From assembly GCA_051313645.2 (NCBI GenBank), contig JBNRSN020000003.1, forward strand, positions 416,826,001 to 416,890,000: 64,000 nt of DNA, in the 5' to 3' direction. Made by a program: the position numbers and the translations under genes. This document shows positions 1 through 60,223 of the stretch, one piece after another. Below the pieces are notes generated by a model. The model had not been told where the DNA came from and did not search any database. It saw only the letters and a list, made by a program, of their open reading frames with translations. The stretch is from Centroscyllium fabricii (Eukaryota). How positions within the stretch are numbered: the first letter of the stretch is position 1; every line of letters begins with the position of its first letter.

Positions 1-119
1 ATCCCACTGAATTGGTGAATACTACTTGCCAAATGTTTAATTTCTGTGTTACACGAACACACGTAATAGTTTTTTTGTCATCTACAGATATTATTGGACC
101 ACAGAGCCGTACTTCAATA

Positions 120-784
120 CAGGTTGAACACCTTTAATCGGGCAACCAAAAAGCCGGCAACTTCAGTCGTCCGGCACAAATCGCCCTGACTGCCCTGCAC
201 ATGCGCAAAATGGCCGCCACGATTGAGGCTTCGGCGAATGATCTGCGCATGCACTCGCCGTTCGGCGGCTTATGCGCAGATCATTTGCCGAAGCCTCAAT
301 CGCGGCGGCCATTTTGCGCATGTGCAGGGCAGTCGGGGCGAGCAGACAGACAGGAGAGGGCAGGCGAAAGAGAGCAGCAGAGCCCACTCCAGCCTTTGAT
401 CCCGGCACATTCACACTCACCGTCCCGATTGCTTCAGGAGACGCCGACCCCATGGAAGGCAGCAGCGGCTTCAACAACGACTCGGACTCGGGAGGCCGAG
501 AGCTCCAGTGCCTCGGAGTCACTGGGAGACGAGGAGGAGAAGGAGGAGGCCTTCTCCGACCTGTCGGATGAGGAGCAGATGCCCGACATCAAGGGTACAA
601 CCTCGCGGCGGCCATTTGCAGATCATTCAAAACTTCGCGGTGGCCATTTGCAATGTTATGCGCATGCGCGCAGCCATTTTGAATGATGCGCGCATGCGCA
701 CTGGCCGGCTTCATTCTCCCGTTTGTTTCGGTATATCGGCGCAGGCCTAGTCCCGCCCGTGCCGAATTAACGGTGCACAACCTG
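120..784. mobile_element. Tigger/pogo-like non-autonomous TIR element (MITE) copy 1, with internal palindrome and coding-like cargo
   Basis: TA|CAGGTTGAACACCTTTAATC ... AATTAACGGTGCACAACCTG|TA; TA target-site duplication and CAGGTTG termini as in Tc1/mariner-pogo (Tigger4/MER46-like) elements. Confidence 0.85.
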
Positions 785-1780
785 TACTGCAAAGCACTTT
801 CAACTTGTGGGATCCATATGATACAATCTTATCATCGACACATAAGTACATATGGATTTTATATTACTGGCAGACTGTTTTGTGTGTCCACAAGATGCCT
901 GGATACCTCGCCAAGTTAGCAATGAAGCAACTCCCCTTAAAAATTGAGAATTAATTTGAAGAATTTATAAATGTCTACTTTGTTTATGCTCCCATTTTTT
1001 GGAATACATTTGTAATATTACATTATAAGAGAAAGTCAAAAATTATGCAGGAGAGTGGACACATCTTAATATAATTAAACTATAGATGTATTGGCTAACA
1101 AACACGATGGTGTTTTCCATCACTGTTTTGTTAACTTGAATGGCTGGGCAAAAGGTTTTCATTTTTACATTAATCCACTTTTGGGTGTGCTTTTCTACAG
1201 TTTTTGTGCTTAATGATTGATGAACAATTAAGCATCCCACAGAGTAATTGTAAGGATAAACATCAAAATAAGGTGATTTAAAGGTTAAGAGGGTGATAAC
1301 CTGGGAGAAGCACTTTCAATGATATTTTAATTTAAGGTGCTGATTTCTACAGACACTCTTTCCCTGTGGAAACTTACCATTTACAGGCTCTTGGCCAGAG
1401 AACAGCTCCAACACTGTGACTGGCACATCAAGGAGCAGGTGTGCAGCAATAAGCTGCAAATTGATATTTGGAGCCAGCCAGGCTACCAATCTAGAGTTGC
1501 CTGAGCTGGGAATAGTCAGTATCCGATGGCTACTGCTGCATACTCAGCCAGGACTGAGTTTTCCCAAACTGGGCAACTCTTTAAACTGAAATATACTCCC
1601 TCTACACTATCCTTATCTTTCAATCTAATGACAGCTGACAGTTTGATAACGCATACTGTGTATTAGCCACTGCCCTGTCATTTTCATATTAATACTTCAA
1701 ATGTTGCCGACTCTCTTTAAAAAAAAAAAAAAAAAAAAAGCTGAAGTTCTGAGTAGCAATGTGTATGTCTGCATATAGTA

Positions 1781-2443
1781 CAGGTTGAACTTCGTTAATC
1801 CGGCACCCGAAAAACCGGCAACTTCGATCGTCCGGCAACAATTTCCCCGACTGCCCTGCGCATGCGCAAAATGGCCACCGCGATCGATGCTCCGGCGAAT
1901 GATCTGCGCATGTGCCGCCAAACGGCAAGCGCATGCGCAGATCATTCACAATGGCCAAGCCGATCCCGAGCCGAGCCTGGCCGCTGCGAGCCTCCCCGAG
2001 CCTGGCCGCTGCGAGCCTCCCCGAGCCTGGCCGCTGCGAGCCTCCCCGAGCCTGGCCGCTCCGAGCCTGGCCGCTGCGAGCCTCCCCGAGCCTGGCCGCT
2101 GCGAGCCTCCCCGAGCCTGGCCGCTGCGAGCCTCCCCGAGCCTGGCCGCTGCGAGCCTCCCCGAGCCTGGCCGCTGCGAGCCTCCCCGAGCCTGGCCGCT
2201 GCGAGCCTCCCCGAGCCTGGCCGCTGCGAGCCTCCCCGAGCCTGGCCGCTGCGAGCCTCCCCGAGCCGGGTCTCCTCGAACGATCAGCGCATGCGCAGAC
2301 CACTCAAAATGGCTGCCGGCCTTTTGCGGTGGCCATTTTGAATGGTCTGCGCATGCGCTCGGCGAAACTGCAATCGTTCGGGATTTTCACTTGTCCAGAA
2401 TGGGTCTGGTCCCGCCCGTGCCGGATTAACGAACTTCAACCTG
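1781..2443. mobile_element. Tigger/pogo-like MITE copy 2, containing a 25-bp minisatellite
   Basis: TA|CAGGTTGAACTTCGTTAATCCGGCAC ... GTGCCGGATTAACGAACTTCAACCTG|TA. Confidence 0.9.
1971..2270 (+). repeat. 25-bp tandem repeat (CCGAGCCTGGCCGCTGCGAGCCTCC), about 12 copies
   Basis: Direct period of 25 nt with one shortened 15-nt unit near 2055-2070; no spacers. Confidence 0.95.
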
Positions 2444-2549
2444 TACTCATTAAAATCCACAATGAAATGAAAGGACTCTCTACTCCTGGGAAACCAGTAA
2501 TAGGAAGCTGATTTACTTGGCACGAGCATCCTTTGATTTAATTATAAAA

Positions 2550-2847: not shown

Positions 2848-3425
2848 AGGTTGCGGAACACCTCCGTTCAGTCCGTAAGGGGGACCCCGAGCTTCCAGTC
2901 GCCTGTCACTTTAATTCTCCGCTCCACTCTGATCTCTCCGTCTTCGGCTTCTTACACTATTCCAATGAAGCTCAACGTAAGCTCGAGGAACAGCACCTCA
3001 TCTTTTGATTAGGCACTTTACAGCCTTCTGGACTCAACATCGAGTTCAACAATTTCAGGCCATAACCACGGCCATTTAAAAAAAAAATGTTTCTCTCATG
3101 ACAGCTGTTGTTGATTCTGCCATTTACACCTCATCTAGAGTAATTTTTGTTTCTTAACTTGTCCCATTACCATCTCCTTTTGCCTTGCACCATCATCCCT
3201 TATGTTTTTTAATCTCTCCTGCCTTCCAGCCTATCACAGACCTTCCCTTTTGTTCTTTCCTCCCCTCCTCCCTTTTCCTGCCTCTACACTTGCTTAAAAA
3301 TGTTACATCTCTAACCTTCTCCAATTCTGATGAAGGGTCATCAACCTGCAACATTAACTCTGTTTCTCTCTCTACAGATGCTGCCTGACCTGCTGAGTAT
3401 TTCCAGCATTTTCTGTTTTTACTTT
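2848..3425 (+). mobile_element. Penelope-like element 3' fragment (GIY-YIG endonuclease C-terminus plus terminal repeat region)
   Basis: AEHLRSVRKGDPELPVACHFNS...AQRKLEEQHLIF*LGTLQPSGLNIEFNNF is typical of the PLE GIY-YIG C-terminus; in-frame stop; pyrimidine-rich tail with a CTGATGA motif. Confidence 0.8.
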
Positions 3426-3503
3426 CATTTAATATTCTGTACGACAAAAAATGCCTCTCAGAGAGATGAAGAAGTGAGGAGAGAATGTAACGGAAGGAGC
3501 AGG

Positions 3504-4892
3504 GGGGCAAAAACGGGAGGGGGCGATGGGAGAAAGGGGGCGACGGGAGGAGAGAGGGGCGGCGGGAGGAGAGGGGGGGCGCGGCGGGAGGAGAGGGGGG
3601 GCGGCGGGAGGAGAGGGGGGCGGCGGGAGGAGAGGGGGGGCGGCGGGAGGAGAGGGGGGGCGGCGGGAGGAGAGGGGGGGGCGACGGGAGGAGAGGGGGG
3701 GGCGACGGGAGGAGAGGGGGGGGCGACGGGAGGAGAGGGGGGGGCGACGGGAGGAGAGGGGGGGCGACGGGAGGAGAGGGGGGGCGACGGGAGGAGAGGG
3801 GGGGCGACGGGAGGAGAGGGGGGGCGACGGGAGGAGAGGGGGGGCGACGGGAGGAGAGGGGGGGCGACGGGAGGAGAGGGGGGGCGACGGGAGGAGAGGG
3901 GGGGCGACGGGAGGAGAGGGGGGGCGACGGGAGGAGAGGGGGGCGACGGGAGGAGAGGGGGGGCGACGGGAGGAGAGGGGGCGACGGGAGGAGAGGGGGC
4001 GACGGGAGGAGAGGGGGCGACGGGAGGAGAGGGGGCGACGGGAGGAGAGGGGGCGACGGGAGGAGGGGGGGCGACGGGAGGAGAGGGGGGGCGACGGGAG
4101 GAGAGGGGGGGCGACGGGAGGAGAGGGGGGGCGACGGGAGGAGAGGGGGGGCGACGGGAGGAGAGGGGGGGCGACGGGAGGAGAGGGGGGGCGACGGGAG
4201 GAGAGGGGGGGCGACGGGAGGAGAGGGGGGGCGACGGGAGGAGAGGGGGGGCGACGGGAGGAGAGGGGGGGCGACGGGAGGAGAGGGGGGGCGACGGGAG
4301 GAGAGGGGGGCGACGGGAGGAGAGGGGGGGCGACGGGAGGAGAGGGGGGGCGACGGGAGGAGAGGGGGGCGACGGGAGGAGAGGGGGGCGACGGGAGGAG
4401 AGGGGGGGCGACGGGAGGAGAGGGGGGGCGACGGGAGGAGAGGGGGGGCGACGGGAGGAGAGGGGGGGCGACGGGAGGAGAGGGGGGCGACGGGAGGAGA
4501 GGGGGGGCGACGGGAGGAGAGGGGGGGCGACGGGAGGAGAGGGGGGGCGACGGGAGGAGAGGGGGGGCGACGGGAGGAGAGGGGGGGCGACGGGAGGAGA
4601 GGGGGGGCGACGGGAGGAGAGGGGGGGCGACGGGAGGAGAGGGGGGGCGACGGGAGGAGAGGGGGGGCGACGGGAGGAGAGGGGGGGCGACGGGAGGGGG
4701 AGACGGGAGGGGGCGACGGGAGGGGGCGACGGGAGGGGGAGGGGGCGACGGGAGGGGGCGACGGGAGGGGGGAGGGGGCGACGGGAGGGGGGAGGGGGCG
4801 ACGGGAGGGGGGAGGGGGCGACGGGAGGGGGGAGGGGGCGACGGGAGGGGGGAGGGGGCGACGGGAGGGGGGGGGGGAAATGAGGGTGACGG
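3504..4892 (+). repeat. G-rich ~20-bp minisatellite (GGGGGGGCGACGGGAGGAGA)n
   Basis: About 1.4 kb of near-identical units with G-run length varying 5-8; explains the long P/S/R and G/R/E ORFs. Confidence 0.97.
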
Positions 4893-4985
4893 GAAAGACA
4901 GCATGATTTATACAGCGCATTATCATGTCCCAAAGCACTTCACAACCAATGAAGTGCCTTTAAGTCAGTCACTGTTATGTTGCTG
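4893..4985 (-). mobile_element. Deu-SINE (SacSINE1-like) 3' tail fragment
   Basis: Reverse complement resembles AACAGTGACT...CTTCATTGG.TGT.AAG.GCTTTGGGAC...GCGCT.TATAAAT; similar to 21115-21205. Confidence 0.6.
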
Positions 4986-5622
4986 GAAGGTATTCATAAA
5001 TGAAAAATCATATTAAATATAAATTTTCAGAAAAGCAAATCCATTTATAAAAATAAACGGATTCTGACCCAATCTATACTTCAGATAGATCAAATTATGC
5101 AAAAATATTAGTCTTTAGTTCTCAAAGCATGAGGACCCATTAGGAACAAATATTCTTATAACTTTACCCGAGGGTACCAGAGGAAAACTTAAACATAAAA
5201 ATAAATGACAAGATTACAGAATTTTATTAAATAATCTCTTTGTAAATAAACATCTTTCTGTTCTTCTTAATGTACGATCCATTACAATATTTAGTAAACT
5301 TTTTCTTACTGGCACACTTAGTGCAGATATACAGTAAATGCTACAAAGTTATAGAATATGAAGATAATAAAATTAAACAGTCAAGGGTTAAGGATATTCA
5401 CCTATCTTTACACACAAAGGGATCTGATTGATGAACCGAAGATACAGTGCAGCCATCAGAAACTGTCGGCTGCAATATCCCAATTCCCTTCTTAGATTAC
5501 TTGGTACATGAAACACAGCACTGAGAATAAATCTGTGTACAGATTCAAAATTTACACAGTATACAATTACGTAATTAAGTCTAGTCTACTGAAAATCTGA
5601 TGCCCCGGGGATATATACTTAC

Positions 5623-5676
5623 ATTTTCAGGTATACTAGGAAGTTCTCGGCTATCGGGTGTAGTAAAGTACGAATG
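5623..5676 (-). CDS. DENND1A: DENND1A coding exon (equivalent to human exon 8), HSYFTTPDSRELPSIPEN
   Basis: ttttcttttggtAG acceptor, GTAAGT donor, 54 bp phase 0-0; matches recalled human HSYFTVPDTRELPSIPEN. Confidence 0.93.
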
Positions 5677-5877
5677 CTACCAAAAGAAAAAGATATTTAG
5701 AATCGTTTTCATAAAATGCGGTTTACAGAAAATGCACAAAACTGAAAGTATAATTATCTATTGTGCTATCAGCCATAATACAGAAATAAAGCTTTAGTTA
5801 CTTATAACAATCAATTTAATCTGTTTGTACCTATGCCAAGCTATGGAGCTAAAATTAAAATACAAATTATACTAGTA

Positions 5878-6342
5878 CAGGTTGAGCGCCGTTAATCCGT
5901 TACCTGAAACGCCGGCAACTTCAGTCGTCCGGTATAAATTGCCCCGACTGCCCTACGCATGCGCAAAATGGGCGCTGCGATCGATGCTTTGGCGAATGAT
6001 CTGCACATGCGCAGATCATTCAAAAACGGGCGCCGGACGAGCCGGGCCTTCCGTGACGTCAGGGCACGGCGGCTCGCGCCGCGTTTTGAATGTGCGGGTC
6101 CAGAGCGCCCACCATGGTGAAGTGCACGATTCCCCGGAGCAGCCTGCAGGCCGTCATCAGGAGGCACAAACTGCAGCTGAGACTCAGCAAGGACGTTTGG
6201 TGGCCATTTCCAATGTTGTGCGCATGCGCGCGGCCATTTTGAATGGTGCGCATGCGCACTGGCCGGATTCATTCTACCGGTTTTTTCGCTATACCGGCGT
6301 GGGCCTAGTCCCGCCCGTGCCGGTATAACGGTGCTCAACCTG
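5878..6342. mobile_element. Tigger/pogo-like MITE copy 3 carrying a CENP-W-like gene fragment
   Basis: TA|CAGGTTGAGCGCCGTTAATCC ... TATAACGGTGCTCAACCTG|TA. Confidence 0.9.
6114..6197 (+). pseudogene. CENPW: Captured CENP-W-like N-terminal coding fragment (MVKCTIPRSSLQAVIRRHKLQLRLSKDV) inside a MITE
   Basis: Strong Kozak context GCCCACCATGG; peptide aligns with recalled chicken CENP-W MRRTVPRGTLRKIIKKHKPHLRL and human ..APRGFLKRVFKRKKPQLRLEK; truncated by the MITE arm. Confidence 0.7.
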
Positions 6343-6654
6343 TACCATGATTTACTGCATTTTGGTTGCAAGGACTCAGTATGAGAGGAGCCCCAGTCAC
6401 TGCAATATAATAAACGTGACTTTGTGTGGAACACTAGGCAGTATTTTTAAAGTTTCGTGACCTATATTTATATATAATATACAAAAATATAGCATGGTAT
6501 AATGCATCCGCCACACTTCCTCAGTTCTAGCCAAATAGCTATTATTTCTATAAATTGTACAAATGCAGAATAGTGTTTTCATCGGTGCACCTTTTCAATC
6601 ATCATTAAATAGAATTTATAGCTTTTTGGAATCGCTGTTGCATCTGAAAAACAA

Positions 6655-8662: not shown

Positions 8663-9160
8663 TGTTTGGATCTTCCTGGATCTGGGAAGGACCAAGGTCT
8701 GGACTTGGAACAAAGTGATCGGGAAGGTTAGGAGAGAACACTTAGGGACTTTGGGACTGGGAGGAATCCAACAGGAAGGCCACAGGCTGCCTGGTTGGGA
8801 GGGAACCAGCAGGAAGGCAAATGCCTGCTTGGGCCAGCAATGCCACGCTGGGATTGGAGGCTGACTGCAGAGCAAGATTAAGAACAGAGTCATACGAATG
8901 AACCCCTGGTAACAGACACTTTAATGGTCAAGTAGTTAATATGGATCAATGACAGGTTAGGTATACCAGCAACATGCTTCCTATGGGACAATTAAATGTC
9001 TGCATGTGCACCGATTAAAAAAAAAAATTACGAGCAGGTCTCTCATGATTTTGCTCACGTTCAGTCAGAGAATACACCAAAGTATGATGACTAAAGCAGG
9101 ACAAGAAATTTGACGCAAACAGGAAGTGTGTGCTACATACAAGATGCTTAAAACGTAATA

Positions 9161-9673
9161 CAGGTTGAGCACCGTTAATCCGTTACCCGAAAAACCGGCA
9201 ACTTCGAACGTCCGGCAATAATTTCCCTGACTGCCCTGCGCATGCGCAAAATAGCCACCGCGATCGATGCTTCGGCGAATGATCTGCGCATGTGCCGCCA
9301 AACGGCGAGCGCATGCACTGATCATCCACAATGGCCAAGCCCTCCCCGAGCCTGGCCGCTGCGAGTCTCCCCGAGCCTGGCCGCTGCGAGTCTCCCCGAG
9401 CCTGGCCGCTGCGAGCCTCCCCGAGCCGGGCCGCTGCGAGCCTCCCCGAGCCGGGCCGCTACGAGCCTCCCCAAGCCGCTGCGAGCCTCCCCGAAGCTGG
9501 TCTCTCCGGACGATAAGCGCATGCGCAGACCACTCAAAATGGCCGGCGACCTTTCGCGGCGGCCATTTTGAATGGTCTGCGCATGCGCTTGCCGAAGCTT
9601 CAATCGTTCGGGATTTTCACTTTCCTGGCATGGGCCTGGTTCCGCCCGTGCCGGATTAATGGTGCTCAACCTG
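9161..9673. mobile_element. Tigger/pogo-like MITE copy 4 (same subfamily as copy 2, about 6 copies of the 25-bp unit)
   Basis: TA|CAGGTTGAGCACCGTTAATCC ... GGATTAATGGTGCTCAACCTG|TA; arms colinear with 1781-2443. Confidence 0.9.
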
Positions 9674-10635
9674 TATTGTATATAGATAAATACTGCACTT
9701 GTAACTTATCTATAAGGTCAATTGAAATAATGTAGCGTTCCAATAGAATCTAAATTCTTAACTAAGTACTAAAAGTTACTTTTTGTTTCCCATTTGAACT
9801 TTATAAACTTACCACGCACTCACAGACCAGCAAGAAAGTTGATGTTAGTGGTTTATGAGATCATAATGAGTGTACACAGGACAGTTTGGTAAATATAAGA
9901 GTAGTGTAATTAACATGACATTTTTTGATTATCTCCAAGAGTAATAACCAATTTGATACACTTCAAATAACAGAAACAAGACAGGATGATAGTGAATTCT
10001 TCTCACTGAAATCATAGACAGGGGTGGGGTGGGGTAAAGAGAAGGGGAAACAGTCTAATTTGCACTTCCATTTTTGCCCTCTTTTGTTTTCAAAGTTCCA
10101 GCCATGCCTTGCTCTGCTCCTTGGATCTCAAACTGCAAAAGTCAGCATTCACACTGCATCTACAAACTGCAGCTCCACCCTCAAACGCTGGGGGTTTGCA
10201 CACTGATTCAATCAGACATTGCTTCTGTTTGTGCACTGATGTAATAATGGAGTCTGATGCATCAATAACTTAAAGCAAAGCTTTAATCCACTACATTATC
10301 ACTATGTACAAAGACAGGTTTTACCATGCTTCCAGGTGAAGCGTTCCCCCCACACTGAGCAGTTCCAGTATTTATACTAATAGAAAACAGGAAGTGACAT
10401 GTACCCCTTAGCCTTCCCCCGGAAGTCTGTTCAATATTACCACATGCACCATCCTAAGTGACATGGTTAAGTGCAAACCAGTTCACTGCGATGCTGAAGG
10501 TGCTGTGTGAATACATCCTTTAGATAGACACAGCTAATTAAAACCCAAACACAACAGAGTTACAGAATTTTCCTACTGTATCACTATTATATATAAATGT
10601 GCAGAATTAAGTGCACAGTAGTACATTCCACTTAC

Positions 10636-34935: not shown

Positions 34936-35603
34936 TTAGTCGAGTCTACTAAGCGGTACCTTATCGAAGGCCTTTTGAAAGTCTGTGTATAGTACAGCCA
35001 CTGCATTACCCTTGTCTACTCTTTCTGTTTCTTCTTCAAAGAATTCAATAAGGTTGGTCAAGCATGATCTTCCCTTTTGAAATCCATGCTGACTATTCTC
35101 AATTATATTTTCGGTTTCTAATAGTTTTTCTATTACATCTTTGAGTAAAGATTCCAAATCGTTCCTGCCACTGACGTGAAGTCAACTGGTCTATAGTTCC
35201 CTAGATTTGTTCCATCTCCATTTTTGAACGTAGGAATAACATTAGTTGTCTGCCAGACCTCTGGCATTATTCCCTTTTCTATTGAATGCTTATACACACA
35301 TTAGTGCTACCTCTTCCTTAGTTTCTTCAGTATGCAAATGAGTAAATGTACAATGATAAGAATTATAATTTTTTTTTCCACAAGTGAAATAAACTGGAAA
35401 ATGTGCCACTAATGGTGCATTATTTAAAATTTGGACAGTTTAGAATAGTTTTGGTGCAATATGGAGTAACATGATAAGGCGTAGCCGGTAAGTATATCTA
35501 TATCTATATCTTTACCTGTATAACTATATATATACTTGTTATAATATAGTAAAGATATAGTAGAGACAGAGTAGTCCAAGTCTACTAGGGATTTAAGAGA
35601 AAA

Positions 35604-36560
35604 ATGGGAGACATAGTGCAGGCCGTCGCAGTCATATGCTCCACCTGCAGCATGTGGGAATTCGGGGACCCAGACGGGGCCCCTGGTGAACACGTGTGCA
35701 GGAGATGCGTCTATCTGCAGCTCTTAGCCGACCGCTTAACGGTGCTAGAGCGGCAGATGGAGTCATTGTGGGGCGTGGGCAACGATGAGCGGGTCGTGGA
35801 TAGCACGTTTGAGAGAGTGGTCACACCAAAGACTAGAATAGACCAGTTAGAAGGAAAATGGTTGACCACCAAGAAGAGTGCCAGAGTGAGGAAGGAAGTG
35901 CAGGGAACCCCTGTGGTCGTCCCCCTGGCAAACAAGTATACCGCTTTGGATACTGTGGAGGGGGACGACCTACCAGGGGAGGGCAGCAGCAGCCTACTTC
36001 CTGGCACTAGGGGTGCTGGGGCTGCCCAGAATGGGAGGGAAACTAGTGTGCCAGCAGTAGTAATAGGGGATTCAATTGTAAGGGGCACAGAGTGGCGGTT
36101 CTGCGGCCGCAGACGTGACACCAGGATGGTTACTTGCCTCCCTGGTGCCAGGGTCCGGGATGTCACGGATCGGCTGCAGGACATCTTGAGGGGGGAAGGG
36201 GACCAGGTAGAAGTTGCGGTCCACATTGGCACTAACGACATAGGAAAAAAGGGGGTCGAGGTCCTGCAAAGAGAATTTAGGGAGCTAGGTAAGAAGCTAA
36301 AAAGCAGGACCCCAAAGGTTGTAATCTCTGGATTACTCCCAGTGCCACGAGCTAGTGAGTATAAGAACCGTAAGATAGAGCAGCTTAATTCGTGGCTAAG
36401 AAGTTGGTGTAGGGGGGAGGGTTTCAGCTTTTTGGATAATTGGTCCCGCTTCTGTGGAAAGTGGAACCTATACATGCCCGACGGATTGCACCTGAACCGG
36501 AAGGGGACCAATATCCTTGCGGGAAGGTTTGCTAGCCGGGTTGGGGTGGGTTTAAACTAA
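35604..36560 (+). CDS. CR1 ORF1: N-terminal CxxC..CxxC zinc finger/coiled coil plus SGNH esterase domain
   Basis: CSTC...CRRC, VIGDSIVR, PGA, HIGTND and DGLHLN motifs; 318 aa. Confidence 0.93.
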   Translation: MGDIVQAVAVICSTCSMWEFGDPDGAPGEHVCRRCVYLQLLADRLTVLERQMESLWGVGNDERVVDSTFERVVTPKTRIDQLEGKWLTTKKSARVRKEVQGTPVVVPLANKYTALDTVEGDDLPGEGSSSLLPGTRGAGAAQNGRETSVPAVVIGDSIVRGTEWRFCGRRRDTRMVTCLPGARVRDVTDRLQDILRGEGDQVEVAVHIGTNDIGKKGVEVLQREFRELGKKLKSRTPKVVISGLLPVPRASEYKNRKIEQLNSWLRSWCRGEGFSFLDNWSRFCGKWNLYMPDGLHLNRKGTNILAGRFASRVGVGLN

Positions 36561-36595
36561 TTTGGCAGGGGGAGGGGACCCAGAGTGACGGTATA

Positions 36596-39476
36596 ATGGA
36601 TAGGGGAACACAACCAAATAAAGGAAAGCAGACTAGACAGCAAAACAAGGTAGTTTTAGGACAGAGAATGAAAGGTATATACTTTAACGCAAGAAGTCTG
36701 ACTAACAAGGTGGATGAGTTAAAGGTATTGGTTGACTCATGGGAATATGATATAGTAGCTATCACGGAGACGTGGCTGAAAGAGGGGCAAGAATGGCAGC
36801 TAAATATTCCGGGGTATAGAATTTTCAGGCGAGACAGAGACGAGGGAAAAAGGGGAGGGGGGGTAGCAATACTGATTAAGGAGTCAATCACAGCCATTAG
36901 GCGGGTCGACCTAATGGACGATTCCTCAAACGAGGCACTATGGGTGGAGGTAAAAAATAAAAAGGGGGGCGGCACCTTACTGGGAGTATATTATAGACCA
37001 CCAAACAGTAAAGGGGAGGTAGAGGATAAGATATGTGAACAAATCACGAAGATAAGTGAAAATAATAAAGTAACAATATTAGGGGACTTTAATTTCCCCA
37101 ATATCAACTGGGAGAATCAAAGTGTGAGGGGCACGGAAGGTTCAGCATTCTTACAATGCAGCCAAGAAAATTTTTTGAAACAATATGTTGGGTCACCTAC
37201 AAGGGGGGGGGCGGTACTAGACCTAATACTTGGGAACGAGGACGGGCAGATAGAGGAGGTAACAGTGGGGGAGCACTTCGGGGATAGCGACCACAATTCA
37301 GTTAGTTTCAAAATTGTAATGGAGAAAGATAAAAATGGACCAGGGGTAAAAATACTAAACTGGGGGAAGGCGGATTTCAATAAAATTAGGAACGATGTAA
37401 CCGCAGTAGATTGGGGCCATCTCCTCAGAGGAAGATCTGCATCAGAGCAGTGGGAGGCCTTCAGAGGGGAAGTCGGGAAGATACAGGAGGAACATGTTCC
37501 TGCAAAAATTAAGGGTGGGGGAGACAAACAAAGGGAACCTTGGATGTCTAGGGATATATGTAAATTAATGAAGAAAAAAAGGGGGGCTTTTAATGAATAT
37601 AAACGGCTAAAAACTGAGGAGGCACTAGGGGAGTATAAGAAATATAGGGGTGATTTAAAGAAGGAGATAAGAAAAGCCAAGAGAGGTCATGAGATTACAA
37701 TGGCCGGTAAAATCAAGGATAACCCTAAGGCATTTTATAGTTATATAAAAAACAAAAGGATCACGAGGGAAAGAGTGGGGCCCATTAAGGACGATAGCGG
37801 AAAGCTGTGCGTCGAGCCTGAGGAGGTGGGGGAGGTACTAAATGAATTCTTCTCTTCAGTATTCACAAGAGAGAGGGACGATACCGACATCGAAACCGGA
37901 CAGAGTGTAGGGGGGGTAATTGAGGATATTACCATTACAAGGGAAGAAGTTCTAGAAATCTTGGGAGGCTTAAAGGTGGACAAATCACCAGGGCCGGACG
38001 CAATGTTCCCCAGGCTGCTGTTCGAGGCCAGGGGGGAGCTTGCGGGCCCCCTGTCTCAAATCTTCAGGACCTCTCTCGCGTCAGGGGATGTACCTGAGGA
38101 CTGGAGAACGGCTAATGTAGTACCCCTGTTTAAAAAGGGTAGTAGGGACAAACCGGGTAACTATAGGCCAATTAGTCTTACATCTGTAGTAGGGAAAGTA
38201 ATGGAAAAAATTCTGAGGGACAAAATCAGTTCGCATTTGGACAAACAAGGTCTAATAAGAGACAGTCAGCATGGCTTCGTCAAAGGTAAGTCGTGCCTGA
38301 CTAATCTGTTGGAATTCTTTGAGGAGGTAACAAAGAGGGTGGATGAAGGGAGTACAGTGGACGTAGTGTATATGGACTTTAGCAAAGCTTTTGATAAAGT
38401 CCCACATAGGAGACTAATAACAAAGGTTAGAGCGCACGGGATACAGGGCAACTTGGCACAGTGGATCGAAAATTGGCTGGGGGATAGGAGACAAAGGGTA
38501 ATGGTAGAGGGCTGCTTCTGTGACTGGAAACCAGTAACCAGTGGTGTCCCCCAAGGATCGGTTTTGGGACCCTTACTGTTTCTAGTATACATCAACGATT
38601 TGGATATGGGAGTAGGGGGTATGATCAGCAAATTCGCTGATGATACGAAAATCGGAAGGGTGGTAAACAACGATGAGGATAGTAAGGGGCTTCAGGAGGA
38701 TATAGATATAATGGTTAATTGGGCAGAAAAATGGCAAATGGAGTTCAACCCAGAGAAATGCGAGGTCATTCAATTCGGTAGACCAAATGGGGTAAGGGAA
38801 TATACCATGAACAACAAAACGTTAAGTAGGACCGAGGAACAGAGGGACCTGGGGGTACAGGTGCACAGCTCCCTGAAGGTTGCTGGACACGTTAACAAGG
38901 TGGTTAAGAAGGCATACGGAATTCTCGCCTTTATTAACCAGGGCATAGTATACAAAAGTAGGGAGGTAATGTTAAACTTGTATAACACACTGGTGAGACC
39001 TCAGCTGGAGTACTGTGTGCAGTTCTGGTCACCGCACTTCAGGAAGGATGTGGTTGCCCTGGAAAGGGTGCAGAGAAGGTTTACCAGGATGATACCTGGT
39101 CTGGGGGACTTATGCTACGAAGAAAGGCTGGACAGGCTGGAGTTGTTTGCCTTGGAGAAGAGAAGGTGGAGGGGTGACATGATTGAGGTGTACAAGATCA
39201 TGAGGGGACACGATAGGGTAGACAAAGGGGCATTGTTTCCCCTGGTGGGAGAGTCAAGTACTAGGGGACATAGATTCAAGATCAGGGGGGGGGGGGAGGT
39301 TTAGGGGGGAGGTAAGGAGAAATTTCTTTACCCAGAGGGTGGTGGAAGTCTGGAACTCCCTGCCTGTGAGGGTGGTGGAGGCAGGAACCATCACAACATT
39401 TAAAAAATACTTGGATCAGCACATGAAGGACCATAACATACAGGGTTATGGGCCAGGTGCGGGCAATTGGGGTTAG
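36596..39476 (+). CDS. CR1 ORF2: APE endonuclease plus reverse transcriptase (frameshift at the G12 run, 39285-39296)
   Basis: YFNARSL, ITETWL, GVYYRPP, GDFNFP, SDHN; QHGF, DFSKAFDKV, GVPQGSVLGP, FADD; C-terminus RRNFFTQRVVEVWNSLP continues in another frame to TAG at 39474-39476. Confidence 0.93.
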
Positions 39477-58938: not shown

Positions 58939-60103
58939 TTCATAAATCTAGATTTTCACTGTGGAGCTGATGGTGGCAGTTTTATTCTATTTACATTTTG
59001 TTTATTTTTTGCTGGTACCAAGTGTCACGTCAGATGATGGCTCGGTCTCTCTATGCAGCGATACGCAATAATCACTGAAGGATTGACAATTATGATATTA
59101 TTACAAGTTCATAATGTGATAATATGTAACTAACCAAAAAACAGTATTACATCAATCAAACATTATCCTTAGCGGTTCATTTACCTTTTTATCCAGATTG
59201 AAAAAATATTTCACATTTTATGCAACTAATCTTGGCAATCACAATTTTTTGCCACAAAACATTGAAACAAATATTCTTAAAATTGTTTTTAAAGTCGCAA
59301 TGTTGCATTAGCTATAGAATTTAGGAAACTAATTTGAGCTACTGCCAGATCTTAAACTTTCAGAATCTCTTTCTGATAATCAGCTTCATAAAACAAACCA
59401 ACCAGAAATATTTGACACTCAGCTTTATTAGGAACTGGTATTGCGAATTCCAACAGTTCAATTCTTTCACTAGCAGTTTGATCCTGTAAATGTCTTCAGT
59501 ACTTTACGGATTTTGGGTGTTATTAATAGAGCTTTAAAGATTGCTCCTTACTTGTGTGTCAAATTCAAAGCGTTATAACTTGGCTGAAATATTTACTTAC
59601 TTACATCTGTTTCATGTCCATTTTATTCGAAGAACGCAACGTCGCAATAAAAGATAACACTGCAAGCTGGAATATAGGTCTATCCTGTACAGAATGCATA
59701 TTGCTCCAACCTAAATATAGATCAGAGTCTGTACAGGGGTTAAATCAACTAAATAGGGCATAATTACATCAAAGACAATGTCCTTTTAATTTCTCCGTTT
59801 TTACTGAAGGTAAGTAGGTTCAGCAAAGTGTAGTGCAGGATTAAACAAGACCAAGAGGCCTGCGTTATTTATTTTAAAAAGGGCCATTGCCCAATATAAA
59901 TTTGAAACTACTATACATGAAAGCGCCTCATAATCACAGAGGGTCCTTGTCCCCAAAACAATGCACTTAGGGCTGACCCCTTAGTACAATGACCTGTTGG
60001 GAAAGGATACGAGAATCCTGTCTGTCAGCTAAAATGTGATGTTTGTCACAAACCAGAGGCTAATGTTGTTTTCCATGGTTGTATATACCCTTTGCGGTCT
60101 CAC

Positions 60104-60223
60104 CTTAGGATACAGAAGCAAGTTTTGGCCCCAGAAGATAAGCGAGAGAATCCAAACCTCTGCTTGCTGTCAATGTCAGTGAGTACAAATGTAAAGTTCT
60201 GGCCAACTTGGCTGACTGTAAGG
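60104..60223 (-). CDS. DENND1A: DENND1A coding exon (equivalent to human exon 5), (S)LTVSQVGQNFTFVLTDIDSKQRFGFSRLSSGAKTCFCIL(S)
   Basis: ttctctctttcAG acceptor, AG|GTGAGA donor, 120 bp phase 2-2; near-identical to the recalled human DENND1A uDENN segment; splices in frame to 11707. Confidence 0.95.

Follow-up and report, generated by a model that had tools for sequence, protein, structure and literature searches.

A high-copy Tigger-like MITE carrying the 5′ end of cenpw within a DENND1A intron of Centroscyllium fabricii

The element in DENND1A and the source of its cargo

The DNA analysed here is a 64,000-nucleotide stretch of the Centroscyllium fabricii genome (hereafter the window), which carries minus-strand exons of DENND1A at about 60.1-60.2 kb, at 11.6-11.7 kb and at 5623-5676, located with short motifs. 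The gene was named from the exon at 60100-60210, for which the best match is human DENND1A (E 4.7e-17, versus 1.3e-12 for DENND1B). At window 5878-6342 lies a miniature inverted-repeat transposable element (MITE) of 465 bp with inverted ends and TA duplications (Table 1). Because minus-strand DENND1A exons are found on both of its sides, the MITE is intronic and its cargo is antisense to the gene, as the first-pass annotation of this DNA had proposed. The window also holds a long tandem array with a 20-bp period at about 3200-5000 and, in a DENND1A intron at 35589-39304, a 922-residue stop-free frame on the plus strand (36536-39304).

Table 1. Features of the MITE at window 5878-6342 and of its surroundings
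Feature	Position in window	Strand	Remarks
Sister MITE with acidic cargo	118..787	+	Cargo about 335-598: GC-rich leader and frameshifted acidic frame
Host DENND1A exon (HSYFTTPDSRELPSIPEN)	5623..5676	-	Acceptor 201 bases from the MITE
Left TA target-site duplication	5876..5877	+	Sequence
Left terminal inverted repeat	5878..5900	+	23 bases, pairs with 6320-6342
Left MITE arm with hairpin modules	5901..6049	+	Common to cargo-free and other-cargo elements
Linker within left arm	6027-6049	+	MITE-derived in appearance (inferred)
Captured cenpw upstream/5′UTR segment	6050..6113	+	Aligns to G000:C1:428958824-428958892
CRE TGACGTCA	6054-6061		Within captured cenpw upstream segment
CHR-type hexamer TTTGAA	6085-6090		Within captured cenpw upstream segment
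ACCATGG	ATG at 6114		Kozak start of captured cenpw codons
Captured cenpw codons 1-28	6114..6197	+	21/28 residues as in native exon 1
Right MITE arm	6198..6319	+	Adds 14 codons, TGA at 6240-6242
Right terminal inverted repeat	6320..6342	-	Pairs with 5878-5900
Right TA target-site duplication	6343..6344	+	Sequence

The CRE, the TTTGAA hexamer and the Kozak ATG lie where the first-pass annotation had placed them, and the 28-residue frame that it read from the ATG is present as MVKCTIPRSSLQAVIRRHKLQLRLSKDV, continuing for 14 codons into the right arm before the stop. It had delimited the captured segment as 6027-6197; the right end stands, while the cenpw-derived part begins only at about 6050. 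A GC-rich element four bases upstream of TTTGAA is present in both native cenpw and the window copy, and the CDE/CHR promoter layout is described as a TTTGAA hexamer with a GC-rich element at that distance (PMC3287175). TTTGAATGTG is retained in 17 of the 22 aligned copies. The hexamer is nevertheless ruled out as the mark of a special cargo, since TTTGAA is also found in the MITE backbone (130 sites in 73 sampled elements, against 22 in shuffles).

A CENP-W family search of the genome returned one locus above the cut-off, with exon 2 at C1:428969638, exon 1 lying 10.7 kb upstream of it and exon 3 at C1:428992368. This native cenpw has three exons and 77 codons, the same length as sawfish CENP-W (P0001), with which it shares 71% identity in exon 1 and 82% in exon 2. 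The nucleotide similarity on which the proposed capture was to stand or fall is present: window 6050-6197 aligns to G000:C1:428958824-428958976 at 85.6% identity in an alignment of 153 columns (E 1e-46 when 100 kb were searched), and the aligned native stretch comprises the upstream region and exon 1. The cargo spans from 69 bases before the native ATG to three codons before the splice donor. Native exon 1 has 31 codons, with its donor at L056:8986, and the cargo lacks a splice donor because it stops 9 bases before the exon end. No MITE ends were detected within about 10 kb of native exon 1, the nearest being about 10 kb and 16.6 kb away. The 28-mer peptide taken by itself gives a weak CENP-W match (the best PDB hits are CENP-W, E 0.027) and had no match in a Pfam scan. 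Together, the native locus and the TA-flanked inverted ends support the view that a Tigger-like MITE captured the start of cenpw.

The commonest codons of the family read MVKRAVPRSSLQAVIRRHKPQLRLSKDV, which is also found in a natural copy (L075), and native cenpw reads MVKRAVPRRSLQAVIRKHKPQLRLSKDI. Residues R17 and V28 of the cargo agree with sawfish CENP-W and differ from native cenpw, from which we infer that the native gene changed after the capture. The ancestral peptide put forward in the first-pass annotation, obtained by reverting three residues through CpG back-mutation, is partly ruled out by native exon 1 and the family copies. R4 and P20 are indeed the family state, but Q12 is the native residue and needs no reversion, and T5 and I6 of the window copy come from A5 and V6, two changes that the earlier reconstruction did not include.

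Copies, subfamilies and other cargoes

A 22-mer from the cenpw cargo has 3,069 exact matches in the genome, one of which is the gene itself, while the reversed control has none. A DNA search gave 3,521 candidates, and the 40 that were scored are all 94-100% identical. These two results rule out a single-copy capture; one source and some copies had been expected, and the single source was found together with copies in the thousands. The 22-mer is exact in 23 of 29 close copies, and from this retention the true number of cenpw-cargo copies is probably 4,000-6,000. In a sample consisting of the first 30 position-ordered 22-mer matches on C1, both ends of the element are present in 23 copies, 19 of which have TA on both sides. 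Divergence from the family's commonest letters is 3.5-11% among the 22 aligned copies and 8% for the window copy. The MITE family as a whole is larger, since a degenerate pattern of its ends has 74,588 exact matches in the genome; a set of 85 position-ordered loci yielded 73 elements with both ends, and five of these carry the cenpw cargo.

Two cenpw subfamilies can be distinguished by a position in the CRE, a minority (including the window copy) with the native A and a majority with G. The A state is found in 4 of 25 scorable copies; an intact CRE is seen in 2 of 30. Contigs across the arm-cargo junctions come from three organisms with different labels, and the G variant accounts for 11,426 of 13,086 in depth in organism B, 5 of 797 in C and 5 of 414 in D, where depth is not to be equated with copy number. 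These proportions suggest an older shared capture followed by a later, lineage-specific wave. Cargo-free forms also occur, in which contigs join position 6025 to 6199 or 6202 with 6-9 other letters between.

With its source located, its copies counted and its ends defined, the cenpw segment is one of several cargoes that have used a single slot of the element. A sister MITE with the same arms lies at L057:8774-9372 (G000:C1:428968774-428969372), inside cenpw intron 1. Its cargo contains exon 1 of NPRL2 (E 8.8e-9 to human NPRL2) and, on the opposite strand, exon 1 of CYB561D2, for which a full protein scan gave 17 matches at E up to 0.001, the named ones being CYB561D2, and a word-indexed protein search gave none. 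The native source was found at C1156:5726002-5726377 (L296:1002-1377; 87.3% identity over 387 columns), and no match to the arm sequence was found in 30 kb around it. In both the cargo and the native locus the two first exons stand head-to-head on opposite strands. The cargo spans the full interval from one start codon to the other and extends through the splice donor of each gene, with about 35 bases of intron included. This composition establishes that the cargo was copied from DNA. A 22-mer from it has 4,565 exact matches genome-wide. An NPR2 family search returned 19 places, all of which are cargo copies and all of which (19/19) lie beside at least one arm; the native NPRL2 locus is absent among these 19 and was reached through CYB561D2.

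Several other high-copy GC-rich segments occupy the same central slot between the same arms. The acidic cargo of the sister element in the window (1,463 first-look candidates) contains a GC3-rich reading frame with a frameshift common to 30 aligned copies. As to its source, Atlas gave only unnamed matches, under 0.9, a protein search gave none among 73 candidates, and Pfam gave nothing above the cut-off. The cargo at L122:153-419 (2,421 first-look candidates) combines a leader rich in pyrimidines with a donor-like GTAAGG and sequence resembling an intron; an arm-excluding pattern for its source gave 49 places, and the four that were examined are truncated or composite copies. The commonest sampled cargo, present in 16 of the 73 elements (e.g., L112, L153, L008:2440-2700), has a motif that we take to be X-box-like, followed by an ATG. 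Further GC-rich cargoes are seen at L110:887-1314, L144:305-1241, L252:2526-2811 and L117:1256-1438, some with donor-like GTGAG or GTAAG. A Pfam scan covered 52 reading frames, out of 71 listed; they come from ten other cargo stretches, and none had a match above the cut-off. Sources have been traced for two cargoes, NPRL2/CYB561D2 and cenpw. In some elements a GC-rich minisatellite is expanding at the centre (window 1779-2445 and 9159-9675; L123, L128, L141). Composite elements with two cargoes (L087:925-1674, L303:1160-1850) suggest stepwise shuffling between copies.

Capture, amplification and probable decay of the cargo

We consider it very probable that a high-copy MITE took up some 150 bases from the 5′ end of cenpw, which now form a decaying passenger. 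A founder MITE would have copied this segment from genomic DNA after a break or a stalled fork at the palindromic centre of the element, with repair or template switching then drawing on an accessible CpG-island promoter through a junction overlap of 3-4 bases, much as in the FoSTeST model of capture (PMC8277862). The cargo-free element is predicted to form long hairpins, with a z of -12.7 relative to 100 shuffles, and in several subfamilies it is the same hairpin arm that precedes the start of the cargo. Overlaps of TTC at the cenpw right end and CGGC at the NPRL2 end may represent junction microhomology. DNA-level capture, the claim of the first-pass annotation, is directly evident in the NPRL2/CYB561D2 sister, and for the cenpw cargo it is likely.

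Amplification of the product was probably driven in trans by a resident Tigger-type transposase, with most copies then deriving from the later subfamily, in which the CRE had already been lost. A resident Tigger family of 2.4 kb with a DDE_1 transposase is present (L236-L265, e.g., L236:539-2916), with copies about 90% identical. Its ends are related to those of the MITE without being the same: left-left and right-right comparisons beat 1000 of 1000 shuffles, and cross pairs do not. The MITE ends may also resemble those of mammalian Tigger4/MER2. No autonomous element bounded by the MITE's own ends was present among 36 transposase loci (the top 30 for DDE_1 and six others, of 150 listed). Another Tigger-like transposase frame, open over 618-619 residues, is present at two loci (L298:651-2927 and L299), each time within a tandem array of 84-bp period. 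At G000:C967:6984886-9290855, on a single 9.5-Mb contig, seven DDE_1 matches have identical 558-residue open frames, a clustering that possibly reflects segmental duplication.

The cenpw cargo is probably neutral, judging from its pattern of sequence change. Across 22 copies, taken from one chromosome arm and picked by the exact 22-mer, so that a functional minority could be missed, CpG change amounts to 11.1% in the left arm, 11.9% in the upstream part of the cargo, 12.2% in its coding part and 11.7% in the right arm. Non-synonymous sites show no deficit of CpG transitions (Fisher p 0.27), and pN/pS outside CpG, though below 1, is 0.71 (20 non-synonymous and 9 synonymous changes in the 22 copies). 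Non-CpG change is lower in the coding part (2.8%) than in the arms (4.4-5.4%), the arm figure counting subfamily differences and alignment noise. The equal CpG decay, together with the loss of the CRE in the larger wave, makes a passenger the simplest reading.

It is conceivable, though we regard it as doubtful, that the promoter pieces help the element, with copies that are open or under-methylated in the germ line, or cell-cycle timed, amplifying more. The two cargoes with known sources derive from gene 5′ ends, the other high-copy ones have a high GC and CpG content, and bat Helitrons with promoters or first exons are described as having out-copied those with other gene parts (PMC4224331). 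The backbone is likewise rich in GCGCATGCGC, which fits the NRF-1 consensus as given in PMC6113564; there are 205 such sites in 73 elements against 0.65 in shuffles, although these are repeats of one module and not independent. However, CpG decay is equal in cargo and arms, the larger and later cenpw subfamily was already without the CRE, and the 5′-end bias can be explained by capture opportunity alone; only cargoes including coding exons are recognisable. We put forward only tentatively that the MITE lineage is a promoter harvester of cartilaginous fishes, in which an NRF1-type hairpin core prefers CpG-island starts (cenpw, the bidirectional NPRL2/CYB561D2 promoter and probably several others) and well over ten thousand pieces have been scattered, some of them active or DREAM-bound. 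In that event, promoter-carrying subfamilies would out-amplify the rest, and some scattered pieces would start transcripts or bind DREAM/MuvB.

Copying of the cenpw piece from the 5′ end of an mRNA, by reverse transcription or RNA-templated repair, appears improbable. The cargo reaches 69 bases upstream of the ATG, ends in exon 1 and is intron-free, and it could all be transcribed. The traits of a processed retrocopy are nevertheless missing, as the cargo ends inside exon 1 with neither a poly(A) tail nor a spliced junction, and it includes the CRE, an element that normally sits upstream of the transcription start. Nor can one RNA supply the opposite-strand first exons with intron bases of the sister element. 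We think it very unlikely that the window copy now regulates DENND1A as a recruited promoter, whether antisense or cell-cycle dependent. In favour of such a role, it has the intact CRE of the minority subfamily together with the CHR-type hexamer and the Kozak ATG, and a DENND1A acceptor is 201 bases away. Against it, the copy has drifted 8% from the commonest letters, three of its four amino-acid changes are CpG transitions, and its motifs are those inherited by the older subfamily, with no extra conservation seen. The reverse direction, a native cenpw start built from a transposon, would account for the shared sequence and for that alone. It is refuted by the conservation of the protein in distant vertebrates, the N-terminus matching CENP-W of chicken, human and sawfish, and is further opposed by a native locus without MITE ends and by the existence of cargo-free forms.

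Comparison with known gene-capturing elements

The MITE is a Pack-TIR as defined by Tan et al. (2021; PMC8277862): terminal inverted repeats flank the cargo on both sides in the window copy, flanks are unrelated from copy to copy, and the parental copy is unlinked for both cenpw and NPRL2/CYB561D2. It resembles the elements of that survey in its cut-and-paste type, its inverted ends and the short host fragment with a source unlinked to the element, and its candidate junction microhomology would be a further likeness (PMC8277862). The same survey reports 370 cases in 100 animal genomes, of which four are multicopy, the one illustrated having three copies; multicopy cases tend to capture GC-rich DNA, and one frog case is a 5′UTR (PMC8277862). 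The elephant shark is part of its panel with 0 cases, and CENPW and NPRL2 are absent from its 12 supplementary files (PMC8277862). In contrast to those Pack-TIRs, the two traced cargoes here have more than 3,000 and more than 4,500 copies, and several more cargoes occupy the same slot.

In their working, the closest parallel is found in bat Helitrons such as HelibatN3, which are described as having captured promoters, 5′UTRs and first exons (Thomas et al., 2014; PMC4224331) and which likewise amplified captured gene starts and built composite cargoes stepwise. Copy numbers reported for them are roughly a thousand for NUBPL and 4,690 for 15 genes together (PMC4224331), whereas single cargoes reach several thousand copies here. 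Helitrons transpose by rolling circle and lack both inverted ends and TA duplications, and a Helitron identity is ruled out by the terminal inverted repeats and the TA duplication of this Tigger-type MITE. Plant Pack-MULEs and other Pack-TYPE elements are also non-autonomous elements with inverted repeats that pick up pieces of genes and continue to transpose (PMC8903248), but they belong to other superfamilies and another kingdom and are described as having many sources with few copies each (via PMC8277862, PMC4224331). With pogo/Tigger MITEs the element shares the TA duplication, short inverted ends starting CAGG, the lack of a transposase within its 465 bp and copies in the tens of thousands (74,588 by exact end matches), and it differs from them in its recurrent high-copy capture of host gene starts. 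We found no account of recurrent gene-start capture by Tigger MITEs, or of this family, in the mostly open-access literature searched, and the MITE itself may have an entry in Repbase or Dfam. A Greenland shark preprint (10.1101/2024.09.09.611499) treats retrocopies, and the words MITE and DNA transposon are absent from its available text.

Gene capture by cut-and-paste elements in animals has been reported as rare and almost always single-copy (PMC8277862). Here, one MITE family has captured from identified genes at least twice, and each cargo has been amplified to thousands of copies, far above the few-copy animal cases reported. With partial first exons of cenpw and NPRL2 present in their thousands, gene annotation, read mapping and inferences of gene duplication in these genomes can go astray. 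The copies also keep older states of host genes, as seen in the two residues that are shared with the sawfish protein and changed in native cenpw. With its thousands of dated copies as replicates, the family offers a natural experiment on capture by inverted-repeat elements, on whether promoter cargo aids spread, and on the decay of motifs without selection.
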